Of a stretch of DNA of 34,222 nucleotides, positions 8,048-33,628 are shown in pieces; positions within the stretch are counted from its first letter, which is position 1; every line of letters begins with the position of its first letter. Position numbers and translations under genes: made by a program. This DNA is from an uncultured Candidatus Saccharibacteria bacterium (GTDB lineage: Bacteria > Patescibacteriota > Saccharimonadia > Saccharimonadales > SZUA-47). Below the pieces are notes generated by a model. The model was not told the DNA's origin. It ran no database searches and was given only the letters and a program-made list of their open reading frames with translations. The DNA is taken from the NCBI GenBank assembly GCA_964451085.1, contig CAYVHE010000003.1, positions 1-34,222 of the forward strand, given 5' to 3'.

Positions 8048-9649
8048 ATGCATAGAAGTACTTATGGGTCCTATAGCTCCAGAAAATCAAAAAAGAGTCA
8101 CAGGTTTGAACTTGTTTTTGCCTTAGTCGTTTTAGCTTTTTCAGCTTTCTTTATTGCCTTGTTTTTAAGGTCGTCCGGAACTGAAGCACCGGTTTCTGAG
8201 CCTGCAAAGCAAATATCGTTCGATGATAGTTTCAGTAATGCAGAAAAACAATCGGTGTTGAAATCAGTTAAAGATCGTAATATACCTGTAGATACTGATA
8301 TCACGGCGCATATCAATACGACTCAGACCCCTATAAATATAGGTTTGGTGCAAGAGGTATTGGTGCCTGTGACGAGTGTGTATTCTGGACAGCAACAAGT
8401 GATTAAAACCAAAATTACTAACTTTAATATTTCGGTATGGCATGAGCTAGACACTACAGTCTCTCAAGCCTTGGCCGGATATTTTGGTATTGGTGCGGAA
8501 TCTTTGGGGGTTCTTGAATCACTAGATTCTCTGAAGGATGGAGATGTTGCCTTCGTCCCAGTAAATTTACTATCTTCCCACGTCAAATTATTATCACTCG
8601 ATGATTCTTATTATCTTGATTCTTACAACTCTGGGGCTGTGTTCCGTGAAGTTGTTTTTACTGGCAAAAATCTCAATAGCTTAAACGCCATAAAACTCAA
8701 TAATCTACCCACCAAGGCTACTGTTTTTAAAGTCAATCAGACTGGTGTTACGGCTCTAACTAGAGGTATGATGCTAAAGTTGAATACCCTGAATGACCCG
8801 CTATATTTTAGCCAAAAGATAGCTCCGTTTTTGAAAGATGCCGATATTACACATGTCTCTAATGAAGTGTCTTTTAAGGATGGCTGTGCATATAGTACTT
8901 CAGCCTTCTGTTCGGACCCCCGCTTCATAGAAACCCTAAAAGACAGTGGTGTAAATTTAGTAGAGTTAGCCGGAAATCATAATAACGATACAGGCAGGCA
9001 AAATAACAAAGATACGATAGATTTATACCATAGCCTGGGATGGCAGACGATTGGCGGAGGTTTAAATACAGAGGAAGCCGCAAAGTATTACGTTGCAGAT
9101 ATTAAACAGTCCAAGGTCGCTTTTTTGTCTTACAATTTTGCAGATTCCCCGAATGGTGTTGCGATTGCCACAAAAGATTCACCTGGAGCCAATAGTTTTG
9201 ATTTCTCTAGAATAGAAACAGATATAGCTAATGCTAAAAAAGAAGCAGATTTTGTAATTGTTGATGTCCAATATTGGGAGTGTTATTCGTACCCAGACGG
9301 CTTTGTGGAGTTTCCGATTTGCGATAAACCAATTGGCGCGCAGGAAGAGAATTTCAAGAAACTAGTAGACCTTGGCGCCGATATGGTGGTTGGGGCTCAG
9401 GCTCATCAGCCTCAGACTTACGAAATATATAAGGGCAAACCAATATACTACGGACTTGGTAATTTGTACTTTGATCAAATTCAATGGCCCGGTACCGAAC
9501 GAGGCATAATTTTAAGCCATTATTTCAATGCCGGGAAATTATTGCAAACCAGGCTGTCCCCTACTGTTTTTGGCAAGGAACTGCAGACGCATTTAATGGC
9601 CAACGATGATGCGGAAAACCTTCTTTCTCGTCTTCAGCTGGCCCGTTAA
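8048..9649 (+). CDS. CapA/PGA_cap family metallophosphoesterase with N-terminal membrane anchor
   Basis: TM helix at about aa 20-40; C-domain with SNE, LAGNHNND, GADMVVGAQAHQPQ, YYGLGNLYFDQ. Confidence 0.88.
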   Translation: MHRSTYGSYSSRKSKKSHRFELVFALVVLAFSAFFIALFLRSSGTEAPVSEPAKQISFDDSFSNAEKQSVLKSVKDRNIPVDTDITAHINTTQTPINIGLVQEVLVPVTSVYSGQQQVIKTKITNFNISVWHELDTTVSQALAGYFGIGAESLGVLESLDSLKDGDVAFVPVNLLSSHVKLLSLDDSYYLDSYNSGAVFREVVFTGKNLNSLNAIKLNNLPTKATVFKVNQTGVTALTRGMMLKLNTLNDPLYFSQKIAPFLKDADITHVSNEVSFKDGCAYSTSAFCSDPRFIETLKDSGVNLVELAGNHNNDTGRQNNKDTIDLYHSLGWQTIGGGLNTEEAAKYYVADIKQSKVAFLSYNFADSPNGVAIATKDSPGANSFDFSRIETDIANAKKEADFVIVDVQYWECYSYPDGFVEFPICDKPIGAQEENFKKLVDLGADMVVGAQAHQPQTYEIYKGKPIYYGLGNLYFDQIQWPGTERGIILSHYFNAGKLLQTRLSPTVFGKELQTHLMANDDAENLLSRLQLAR

Positions 9650-31599: not shown

Positions 31600-31983
31600 T
31601 TAGGCTAGTTCTACTGTTGCGCCTGCTTCTTCTAGCTTCTTTTTTGCGCTCTCGGCGTCTTCTTTTGAAGCTTTTTCTAAGACAGGCTTTGGAGCTCCGT
31701 CAATTATAGCTTTAGATTCACCTAGACCTAAGCCTGTGATTTCTTTTACAGCTTTGATTGCTGCTACTTTTTGTGATCCTGGGTCTTTCAAAATAACATC
31801 AAACTCACTCTTCTCGTCAGCTGCACCTGCTCCTGCATCTCCTGCTGGGCCGGCTACTGCAACTGCTGCTGCAGCTGGTTCGATGTTATATTCGTCTTTT
31901 AATATTGACTGTAGTTCATTTACTTCCAAAACTGTTAGTCCTACTAACTCTTTTGCAAATTTCTTTAAGTCTGTTGCTGCCAT
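31600..31983 (-). CDS. rplL: 50S ribosomal protein L7/L12
   Basis: LTVLEVNEL, Ala-rich hinge, [34 protein letters not shown]. Confidence 0.98.
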
Positions 31984-31995
31984 TGTATTTTCTTA

Positions 31996-32148
31996 CGCTT
32001 CGCTATTCAAGACAAACCTACGGTACTTTTAGCCCAAAAATCTGATTTTCGGGGGCCCCGGTTTTTTCTCGATGTGCCGTGCACGGTCCGCCGGTTGGCG
32101 GAAAATCCGATGCGCGGGCTGCTCTTTTCCATGAGCTACGGGCGAAGC
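31996..32148 (-). ncRNA. Structured cis-element, copy 1, between SD-like AGAAAGG and the rplL AUG
   Basis: Closing stem GCUUCGC/GCGAAGC; internal stems GCUC/GAGC, CCG-C-GCA-U-CGG/CCG-UGC-A-CGG and UCGAGA/UCUUGA; homologous to the rplJ copy. Confidence 0.75.
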
Positions 32149-32244
32149 TTCCTTTCTTGTTGTTAAATAATGTTCTATATCTAGGACTTGATATTCGAGG
32201 GAGCTACTTAAACTACCATTTATCAAGTATCAATTATGCAAGCC

Positions 32245-32766
32245 TTAGCTTGCCTGTGATGCTACTGCGTCTAACAGGCCGTGTAAATTACCTTGCAAAC
32301 CACTCATAACGTTGGAAACAGGTGATTTTAGGGTGTTTATAACAGTTGCTATTAACTCATCTCTACTTGGAAGTTGTGCTAATGCCTTAACATCCTCGGC
32401 AGCCATAAATTTACCATCAGAGCTGTATGCCCCAATAAATTCTAGCTGTGGTTCAGTTTTAGACATCTTATGTACAACTTGAGCTGGTGCGACTTCGTCG
32501 TCACTATTAAACACATACATCAACATACCGTGTAATTCGGCTGTATCACTGTCTTTGTGTGTCTGAGTTGCTTCTAGTGCTTTTTTAACTAAGCGATTTT
32601 TAACTACTTTTATTACAGTGCCATCTTCTTCGGCGTTTCGCCTTAATTCCTGCATTGCCTTAACTGTTGTGCCTTCATATTTAGCGACAACGGTTAATTT
32701 TGAAGTAGAGATTAGTTCGCCTAGTTCCTTAACAAGTTCATTTTTCTTGTCTTTAGTTAGTGCCAT
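32245..32766 (-). CDS. rplJ: 50S ribosomal protein L10
   Basis: MALTKDKK, YEGTTVKAMQELRR, KVVKNRL, LAQLPSRDELIA; upstream of rplL. Confidence 0.97.
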   Translation of the reverse strand: MALTKDKKNELVKELGELISTSKLTVVAKYEGTTVKAMQELRRNAEEDGTVIKVVKNRLVKKALEATQTHKDSDTAELHGMLMYVFNSDDEVAPAQVVHKMSKTEPQLEFIGAYSSDGKFMAAEDVKALAQLPSRDELIATVINTLKSPVSNVMSGLQGNLHGLLDAVASQAS

Positions 32767-32769
32767 TTT

Positions 32770-32879
32770 CCGCTTCGCTACTCAAGACAAAACCTAAGGT
32801 TTTTTCTCGACGTGCCGGGCGCGGAATAAATCCGACGCGCGGACTGCTCTTTTTCCCTTGGGCTTCAGAGCTGTAGCGG
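32770..32879 (-). ncRNA. Structured cis-element, copy 2, between SD-like AGAAAGG and the rplJ AUG
   Basis: Closing stem CGCUAC/GUAGCG (or CCGCU/AGCGG); internal stems GCUCU/AGAGC, CCG-C-GCG-U-CGG/CCG-CGC-C-CGG and UCGAGA..AAAACC/GGUUUU..UCUUGA. Confidence 0.75.
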
Positions 32880-32946
32880 CCTTTCTAATTTAATTATTTA
32901 TTACAATTTCAAATCGACCGTATTGAATTGCTTGTTACCGAGAATC

Positions 32947-32970
32947 AAAAAACGTCCTCTTTCGAAGACG
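32947..32970 (-). terminator. Attenuator terminator of the L10 leader
   Basis: CGUCUUC-GAAA-GAGGACG-UUUUUU between the L10-leader core and rplJ. Confidence 0.8.
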
Positions 32971-33010
32971 CATTAAAATGCTCGCAAACAATAAGATTTC
33001 TCTTAAATTG

Positions 33011-33057
33011 CCTCGGTGACACTATTAAGCAATTTTACTTGCAGTCACTGTCTTCGG
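33011..33057 (-). promoter_or_regulatory. Ribosomal protein L10 leader (autogenous control)
   Basis: CCGAAGACAG-UGAC...UUAA...GUCA-CCGAGG matches the AGACAG...UAA...CCGAGG kink-turn core of L10 leaders; located upstream of rplJL. Confidence 0.85.
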
Positions 33058-33068
33058 TAACAATTCAA

Positions 33069-33098
33069 ATTATAGCATAAAATAAGTCTAAAAATCAA
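33069..33098 (-). promoter_or_regulatory. Sigma70 promoter of rplJL
   Basis: TTGATT, 18 bp, TATAAT with TGn extension, just 5' of the L10 leader. Confidence 0.75.
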
Positions 33099-33112
33099 AG
33101 GCTATTAATTGT

Positions 33113-33628
33113 CTAATCGGTATTATTTGATTCTTGGAGTGCACAACATCCAACAATGCTATATCGGCTATCTCCGGAAATAAAATACAAACTACGTTCT
33201 CCTCCGTATATTTCTAGCGGAGACTCAGTTAGTGGCGGATAAAATTTTGCAGTTATACTATCGTCGATCTTGCAGGCCAAAACTCCAATAACGGGTATAT
33301 GCTCTCCATAAATACCTTGAAAATCTAATATTTCTTCTTGACTCTCGTCGCCCAGCACATAATTAACAGCAAAATCAGTCCATTTTCCTACATCTAATTC
33401 TAACTGATATTCCATCTCGGTTATTACAGGTTTATCCGGATGTATAATAGTAAATCTATTGTTGCCTTCCGTAGCTCTTCTAATACACCCTTCTGGAATC
33501 TCACCCAAGAAACTACTCCAAGAACCATCATACCCAGTGGCTCTCAGAATTTTACTTGGCTCACCGGTTATTTCATATCCTCTTTGTTTGATTACCCTTA
33601 AAGCACCAATTATTTCTCCGCTTGCCAT
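33113..33628 (-). CDS. Hypothetical protein
   Basis: 171 aa; strong AAGGAG SD; no recognised motif. Confidence 0.7.
   Translation of the reverse strand: MASGEIIGALRVIKQRGYEITGEPSKILRATGYDGSWSSFLGEIPEGCIRRATEGNNRFTIIHPDKPVITEMEYQLELDVGKWTDFAVNYVLGDESQEEILDFQGIYGEHIPVIGVLACKIDDSITAKFYPPLTESPLEIYGGERSLYFISGDSRYSIVGCCALQESNNTD

Follow-up and report, generated by a model that had tools for sequence, protein, structure and literature searches.

What lies between the Shine-Dalgarno (SD) sequences and the start codons of rplJ and rplL in this bacterium, and could the two genes be translated across it? Both genes are on the minus strand of the window, that is, the whole 34,222-nucleotide stretch of DNA that was analysed, and each is preceded by the heptamer AGAAAGG at a linear SD-to-AUG distance of 113 nt for rplJ and 167 nt for rplL (Table 1). 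At rplJ the heptamer runs directly into CCGCUAC (32879-32873), a GC-richer element, GUAGCGAAGCGG (32781-32770), AAA and the AUG (32766-32764), a layout that had been described in an earlier note and that our coordinates confirm. The second copy reported at rplL is likewise present: it begins 2 nt past an identical heptamer, ends in GCGAAGC, which is followed by 13 nt and the AUG, and is placed in the same family by a covariance model built from the genome, which matches the rplJ copy with an E-value of 1e-20 and the rplL copy with 1e-11. The two copies align over a conserved core, and each has extra hairpins specific to it.

The heptamer is complementary to the last 7 nt of 16S rRNA as read in a relative (G015), the 16S gene of the genome itself being unassembled, and the genome-wide spacing from AGAAAGG to an ORF start peaks at 7-11 nt (16 of the 49 cases with a nearby start). 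By itself AGAAAGG is not enriched in the window (5 occurrences observed, 6.4 expected); the element, by contrast, exceeds chance expectation by a wide margin. Upstream of rplJ there is also an L10 leader, which includes a terminator-like hairpin at 32971-32952, and this was the only family returned by Rfam for the window at the gathering threshold and for positions 31900-33150 at E<=10, with none for the element. By gene order, rplK and rplA are often expected upstream of the L10 leader; the ORF found there (33113-33628, minus strand, 171 aa) has no Pfam family.

Table 1. Features of the rplJ-rplL region, in window coordinates
Feature	Coordinates	Strand	Basis or remark
Promoter-like site, TTGATT, 18 nt, TATAAT, with TG	33069..33098	-	Consensus match only; upstream of L10 leader
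L10 leader, Rfam RF00557	32937..33075	-	60.1 bits, gathering score 44
rplJ Shine-Dalgarno heptamer AGAAAGG	32880..32886	-	Sequence reading
Element copy 1	32770..32879	-	Predicted fold, model match 32858-32781 at 85 bits, covariation
Copy 1, P1 5' strand	32878-32873	-	
Copy 1, P2	32871-32846	-	
Copy 1, P3	32844-32813	-	
Copy 1, P4	32810-32782	-	
Copy 1, P1 3' strand	32781-32776	-	
Copy 1, tail AAGCGG	32775-32770	-	
Spacer AAA, copy 1 to rplJ AUG (3 nt)	32767..32769	-	
rplJ, ribosomal protein L10	32245..32766	-	Pfam PF00466; 173-aa ORF
rplL Shine-Dalgarno heptamer AGAAAGG	32151..32157	-	
Element copy 2	31997..32148	-	Fold, model match 32133-32006 at 52.4 bits, alignment with copy 1
Copy 2, P1 (GCUUCGC pairs with GCGAAGC)	32148-32142 and 32003-31997	-	
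Spacer, copy 2 to rplL AUG at 31983 (13 nt)	31984..31996	-	
rplL, ribosomal protein L7/L12	31600..31983	-	Pfam PF00542 and PF16320

Fold and covariation of the element

The predicted fold is a cloverleaf-like four-way junction made of a closing stem, P1, and three hairpins, P2-P4, in which the 3' strand of P2 is purine-rich (GGGAAAAGAGC), P3 is a long hairpin mostly tipped by GAUUUAUUC, and P4 (GAGAAA...UGUCUC) is a 13-bp stem with a conserved A/G mismatch; the rplL copy has additional hairpins within P3 and P4. Across the family P1 is often, not always, present. The rplJ copy folds at -48 kcal/mol (z -3.6, none of 200 shuffles as good) and the rplL copy at -58.8 kcal/mol (z -2.2, 8 of 200 shuffles as good), and in silico both fold with P1 closed and with the SD and the AUG unpaired. 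RNAalifold applied to 14 copies from the genome gave 20 pairs, 13 of them with compensatory double changes. A wider set comprised 90 matches, 87 of them distinct, drawn from over 30 genomes; in its alignment, which was fitted to the model and so favours structure, 96.8% of the pair cells of the distinct copies are standard, compared with 72.6% after shuffling and 36-50% with slid partners, and 20 of the 23 modelled pairs have changes on both sides. Pairs of the G-U/U-G type number 68 and A-C/C-A combinations 24, an excess indicating that the fold is strand-specific and is read from the strand given here.

P1 is the least uniform in sequence: a copy-by-copy listing finds it built from at least eight unrelated sequence pairs. 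The earlier note had stated that the copies share no terminal inverted repeat, which does not hold for the family, since many copies share GCUUCGC...GCGAAGC, the rplJ copy being one that uses a different P1 5' strand. This inverted terminal pair is common to one subfamily, which includes the rplL, tuf and contig C92 copies and several in relatives and in most of whose members GCGAAGC is the P1 3' strand; a GCGAAGC-like tail occurs in 32 of 91 copies, and the others close P1 with unrelated sequences.

Two kinds of departure from the common architecture were seen. Within P4 there can be an optional module consisting of GGGG(N)CCCC, an A-rich linker, a small hairpin and GGGGUA (rplL copy, 32006-32133; L100 of G015; L076 of G041), which is interpretable as a peripheral domain or else as another small repeat lying inside the element. 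Variant copies (G000:C2:4132-4205, G000:C12:6445-6717, L043:1077-1151, L094:801-876 and L139-L144, G000 being the assembly from which the window comes) carry a GGAUUUAUUCC-tipped hairpin or a long U/A-rich hairpin 5' of the core rather than in P3, often precede a terminator-like hairpin and, in G001 and G015, include one that is convergent to the 5S gene. These variants may represent a rearranged subfamily or else independent RNA genes.

Distribution and genomic positions

The window's own assembly (0.83 Mb, 98.5% complete, 100 contigs) contains many more copies, first revealed by BLAST and a motif scan; 14 of them were aligned to build the covariance model, which has 77 positions and covers the core only (P2 3' strand, P3 and P4). 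With it the genome has 22 matches at E<=1 and 17 at E<1e-9. Within the same order (Saccharimonadales/TM7), 50 of the 61 genomes searched have matches, about 460 in total and up to about 24 per genome. In a phylum-wide sample there were matches in 2 of 6 same-order genomes and in none of 144 genomes of other Patescibacteria. A loose DNA pattern, which was not used for counts, returned among the matches listed mostly uncultured Saccharibacteria, together with chance hits in other phyla. Rfam found no family for the element at 12 relatives' loci or at locus L108 of G005, and the element was not found described in the published literature on Saccharibacteria RNA motifs, riboswitches and repeats, a survey whose scope ended short of supplementary motif lists. 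The lysM-TM7 motif from that literature is a different motif (PMC5737381). The flagged sequence is thus one copy of an order-wide family of structured interspersed repeats of 80-170 nt in the Saccharimonadales, and the earlier suggestion of a multicopy, non-autonomous element, as opposed to a regulator specific to rplJ and rplL, is borne out.

Copies within a genome are diverged, with a median pairwise identity of about 0.6 and a maximum of 0.86-0.96, none being near-identical; the copies in the genome are old, and nothing hints at a recent burst. In G015 a paired variant specific to that genome recurs in several copies at unrelated loci, which points to conversion or replacement within that lineage. 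An analysis of identity by locus, aimed at separating orthology from re-insertion, was set aside because the 77-nt core is too short and is saturated.

Positions relative to genes were tabulated for a pooled set of 91 distinct copies, comprising the 17 best matches of the genome, the matches in G005 and G015 at E<=1e-8 among the loci examined, and only the best hits elsewhere; above the threshold the set is complete for G000, G005 and G015, and it is not a random sample. An ORF start lies within 30 nt of the model end in 44 of the 91, with a modal distance of 18-19 nt and exactly that distance in 22 of the 44. Among these start-adjacent copies, 33 lack an SD-like 4-mer downstream of the element, in the interval 4-17 nt before the start; in 29 of the 33 such a 4-mer occurs within the 45 nt upstream of the model, and 21 have GAAAGG, a motif with a background of 0.6% per random 45-nt window. 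In most listed copies the SD precedes P1 by 0-3 nt and the start follows P1 after 7-14 nt, and in the hrcA copy the GUG start falls inside the P1 3' strand. Whether copies sit between SD and start codon had been put forward as a check, and it is borne out in part: 29 of the 44 start-adjacent layouts have an SD only upstream, while other positions are common. Strict site-specific insertion after an SD, as the earlier note had it, is not supported, with 47 of the 91 copies not start-adjacent, the SD located after the element in 11 of the 44, and some copies antisense or at gene 3' ends.

A survey of 20 copies in the genome placed 10 directly 5' of a gene in the sense orientation, the genes being those for rplJ, rplL, EF-Tu, S10, L33, AlaRS, a Clp ATPase, HrcA and a 65-aa ORF (by Pfam checks) and a tRNA (identified by eye). 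Four others are in the sense orientation at gene 3' ends or further upstream, including one just after lepA, four are antisense to both flanking genes, including one between atpG and the next gene, and two are ambiguous. The element favours highly expressed genes (tuf, rplJ, rplL, rpsJ, rpmG, alaS, Clp ATPase and hrcA), and in relatives the genes downstream, named by eye from their N-termini, include those for S18, SSB, L11, NusG, SecY, DnaK, TrmD and L21. Upstream of the Clp ATPase gene (G000:C16, about 8200-8310) a near-consensus promoter overlaps an inverted repeat, which we take to resemble the CIRCE operator of HrcA; further 3' in that leader there is an element, and the hrcA gene has a copy of its own.

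Some positions, such as the 3' end of lepA and the mraZ-rsmH spacer, are conserved across families. In the latter, between ORFs that resemble mraZ and rsmH, the element is directly followed by a conserved stretch, CGAGGUUAGCUAAUCGGCAG... (L032, L042, L088 and L115), which is present in four or more published genomes from several families and in the unpublished genome G008; Rfam at the gathering threshold returned nothing for it at L032, L042 and L053 (G008), and it may be another structured RNA. A separate observation concerns rplJ in G003, G018 and G009 (L059, L070 and L085), where the AUG is parted from an SD-like site by inserts of 55-85 nt that are prone to form hairpins and are unrelated to the element, so that split ribosome-binding sites may be common in the lineage beyond this repeat family.

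Copies also occur within and beside structured RNA genes. The apical loop of a 23S rRNA hairpin in G009 (LSU model positions 2238-2241) contains a 133-nt insertion that includes an antisense copy, and this site is also filled in the unpublished genome G020. In G005 the two halves of an apparent L10-leader hairpin are separated by a copy, an interruption that rests on flanks read by eye because Rfam misses the leader in that genome. That the element hides by folding, as the earlier note proposed, fits these positions: the boundary between SD and spacer, the 23S hairpin loop and probably the L10-leader hairpin. The 23S rRNA gene region of G009 contains in addition, on the rRNA strand (L046:435-923), a 162-aa ORF that by eye resembles a homing endonuclease of the LAGLIDADG type, and this hints at an rRNA intron close to the inserted element.

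Other copies lie 4-15 nt 5' of 23S, 5S and tRNA genes, and also between tRNA genes, which raises the possibility of a tRNA-like processing signal, cut by RNase P or RNase Z to free the 5' ends of downstream mRNAs, rRNAs and tRNAs. The cloverleaf-like four-way junction is in keeping with this, as is the 5' part of the element (UGUAGCUC, GGGAA, GAGCAG), which by eye resembles a tRNA D-arm. However, ARAGORN found no tRNA genes in the window and Rfam no tRNA match at E<=10, the 13-bp stem of P4 lacks a T-loop, antisense copies exist, and a cut at P1 would strip 33 of the 44 start-adjacent genes of their only SD, so that we regard a processing signal as very improbable.

Turnover and candidate mobilizing enzymes

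Close relatives differ in their copies. Of two congeners, G017 (97% complete) has no match at E<=0.1 and G023 has 13, and three insertions filled in G023 have empty counterparts in G017. At the rpmC-rpsQ junction about 98 nt are inserted with a target duplication of 24-25 bp spanning stop, SD and start; at the rplV-rpsC junction the duplication is about 20 bp; and at the start of a gene on the opposite strand an antisense insertion is flanked by a duplication of 33 bp. The gene interrupted at this last site (L125 in G023, L130 in G017) apparently uses a new SD and ATG, both located in the 22-nt interval that separates the duplicated target from the core of the element. Elsewhere, direct repeats of 12-50 bp flank other copies for which no empty site was available; one is a perfect 31-mer, and another, behind lepA in G005, is a 49-mer with a single mismatch. 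Orientation differs between genomes in the atpG-atpD spacer, where the copy is antisense in G000 and G023 and sense in G015. Upstream of rplJ, 6 of 30 relatives' loci have the element (2 of the 30 come from unpublished genomes, both empty), and in the same-genus G001 rplJ has no element and shows a plain SD, a 12-nt spacer and the start. Copies were therefore inserted as DNA and in either orientation, the three filled/empty pairs showing duplications of about 20-33 bp, and they turn over between close relatives, which supports the conclusion that the element is or was mobile.

These observations agree with the earlier note's proposal of mobility, and the empty alleles that it had suggested seeking were obtained for the three pairs, with target duplications; for the subfamily that abuts the SD neither a target duplication nor an empty allele was obtained. 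Contigs of four sequencing runs yielded only cross-mapped paralogous copies and contig ends inside the element, with no empty allele. A 42-nt 5' flank shared by two G023 copies was left unused, being at a contig start and a possible assembly chimera.

The same evidence bears on the possibility that the element is a dedicated cis-regulatory RNA, a riboswitch or protein-binding leader whose conditional P1 joins SD and AUG in a regulon of translation, chaperone and stable-RNA genes. Placement is not limited to sense 5'-UTRs before a coherent gene set, there being antisense, 3'-end and intra-rRNA copies, though 44 of 91 are start-adjacent; it is difficult to reconcile such an RNA with the 4 of 20 copies that are antisense to both flanking genes, with an antisense copy inside a 23S rRNA gene, with both orientations at a single spacer (atpG-atpD), with congeners that carry 0 and 13 copies, with insertions flanked by target duplications, or with an rplJ complement of only 6 in 30 loci. 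What speaks for it is the order-wide conservation of junction nucleotides with strong covariation, the near-constant distance to the AUG, the predominance of translation and stress genes downstream, the positions conserved across families (mraZ-rsmH spacer, lepA 3' end), the variants that precede terminator-like hairpins as free-standing RNA genes do, and the age of within-genome copies, which are not near-identical. We consider a dedicated regulator unlikely.

The search for a mobilizing enzyme covered three families, Y1_Tnp, RVT_1 and DDE_Tnp_1. Y1_Tnp was not found in the genome itself, which has 17-22 element copies; it is present in 23 of the 61 same-order genomes, in several copies in some, and shows no association with the element, which occurs in 19 of the 23 Y1-positive and 31 of the 38 Y1-negative genomes, counts that are descriptive only because the genomes are kin and not independent. 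The Y1_Tnp-profile ORFs of 205-240 aa that are multicopy in G003, G004, G041, G056 and others are a separate mobile or domesticated family that does not track the element. RVT_1 occurs in 11 of the 61 genomes, including the copy-free G017, and is missing from the copy-rich G005 and G015; the one hit in the genome itself is on a small contig (C97, 1661 bp), which may be bin contamination, its translation being eukaryotic-retrotransposon-like by eye. DDE_Tnp_1 was not found in the genome, occurs in 6 of the 61 and is likewise missing from G005 and G015. Among these three families there is accordingly no resident Y1, RVT_1 or DDE_Tnp_1 (IS4-type) enzyme that tracks the element, and no autonomous partner was seen. 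The co-occurring HUH/TnpA or reverse transcriptase for which the earlier note had advised looking did not materialize, the former being missing from the genome and uncorrelated across the 61, the latter confined to 11 of them, the copy-free G017 included.

These results weigh directly on the idea that the element derives from REP/REPIN or IS200/IS605 sequences and was moved by a Y1 HUH transposase, inserting 3' of an AGAAAGG-like target. Its strand-specific fold (68 G-U/U-G, 24 A-C/C-A), the direct abutment of a fixed heptamer in one subfamily and the presence of Y1_Tnp in 23 of 61 relatives speak for such an origin. A REP/REPIN-RAYT or IS200/IS605 system would, however, combine a co-occurring Y1 enzyme with duplication-free insertion, and here the enzyme was not found in a genome with 17-22 copies, genome association is lacking (kin, again, not being independent), and the insertions have long target duplications. 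Transposons of the IS200/IS605 type are not known to make target duplications, and we judge this origin highly improbable.

Probable split ribosome-binding sites and comparison with known systems

On balance we think it likely that the element is a structured repeat, mobile now or in the past, that the host tolerates on account of its fold, the outcome being split ribosome-binding sites. Copies of this non-autonomous element were inserted as DNA; they would persist where the compact, P1-closed fold does no harm to the host gene, and host selection would then preserve the fold, which would account for the compensatory substitutions. With P1 closed, AGAAAGG at rplJ and rplL would return to a working distance from the AUG, leaving unpaired 0-2 nt 5' of the stem and 3-13 nt 3' of it. 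The P1-closed structure restores the SD-AUG spacing in the predicted folds, and so the ribosome-binding site would be split yet working, as in phage T4 genes 25 and 38; P1 closure, as modelled, probably bridges SD and AUG at both genes. The order-wide conservation of the junction and the near-constant AUG distance would also fit a host function, as would the bias toward translation and chaperone genes and toward the 5' flanks of 23S, 5S and tRNA genes.

One form that such a function might take is a conditional bridge, in which formation of P1, depending on temperature, Mg2+, a metabolite or a junction-reading protein, gates the joining of SD and AUG at about ten core genes per genome, which could include tuf, rplJ, rplL, rpsJ, rpmG, alaS, Clp ATPase and hrcA. 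We see this as a doubtful prospect; if true, ultra-small bacteria, which have few transcription factors, would have recruited a mobile, portable split-RBS switch as a global regulator of translation.

If the bridging in our favoured explanation, a tolerated repeat that folds, holds, then some of the genes that Saccharibacteria express most highly are translated across a folded insert of 110-170 nt, which far exceeds the phage T4 hairpins and recurs at dozens of genes across the order. The element would be a natural test of how much structure the bacterial initiation complex can bridge, and, as a compact self-closing RNA module, it might serve as an insulating insert; host-gene selection may here preserve the fold of a selfish repeat. 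There are practical consequences as well, in that gene callers wanting an SD 5-12 nt from the start will misjudge the starts of element-bearing genes, and the element breaks assemblies, with contigs ending inside it.

Within the rplJ 5' UTR the element resembles the L10 leader (RF00557) in being a structured RNA, but it is separate, lying 3' of 33075-32937 and having no match to the RF00557 model. All copies of a MITE would share terminal inverted repeats; here one subfamily shares the GCUUCGC...GCGAAGC pair (the tail being present in 32 of 91 copies, with unrelated P1 sequences in others). The element differs from a MITE in that target duplications are not of a fixed short length (about 20, 24-25 and 33 bp), and in that the search for DDE_Tnp_1 gave no related autonomous IS (6 of 61 genomes, G000 not among them). 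A SINE-like retroposon would call for a reverse transcriptase in the genome, where the sole RVT_1 hit is on the possibly foreign C97. IS1634-type insertion sequences and SINEs make long target duplications of variable length, and SINEs have a tRNA-like head. The element's target duplications are similarly long and variable, but unlike these it has no autonomous partner that we could see (DDE_Tnp_1 in 6 of 61 genomes, RVT_1 in 11 of 61).

The closest functional comparison is with T4 genes 25 and 38, in which a single small hairpin cuts the SD-AUG spacing from 22 or 27 nt to 5 or 11 nt (PMC3014915). In both systems SD and AUG are linearly too far apart and an intervening structure restores, or in the element would restore, the spacing; bridging is established for T4 and is suggested by the predicted fold for the element, which is a multi-helix junction of 110-170 nt dispersed over many genes and genomes, unlike the hairpin of a single T4 gene. 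The other comparators are small structured repeats, the Rickettsia palindromic elements, MITEs, REP, BOX, ERIC and Correia sequences (reviewed in PMC10969869). Like these, the element is a short, non-coding, hairpin-forming repeat of a reduced genome that has no internal transposase and survives where the host gene stays unbroken. Unlike them, it is a conserved four-way junction and not a simple palindrome, is conserved with compensatory changes across a whole order, has long and variable target duplications with the SD/start region favoured, and is without near-identical copies within a genome. Its features fit a small structured repeat of reduced genomes, with the Rickettsia palindromic elements as the nearest kind.
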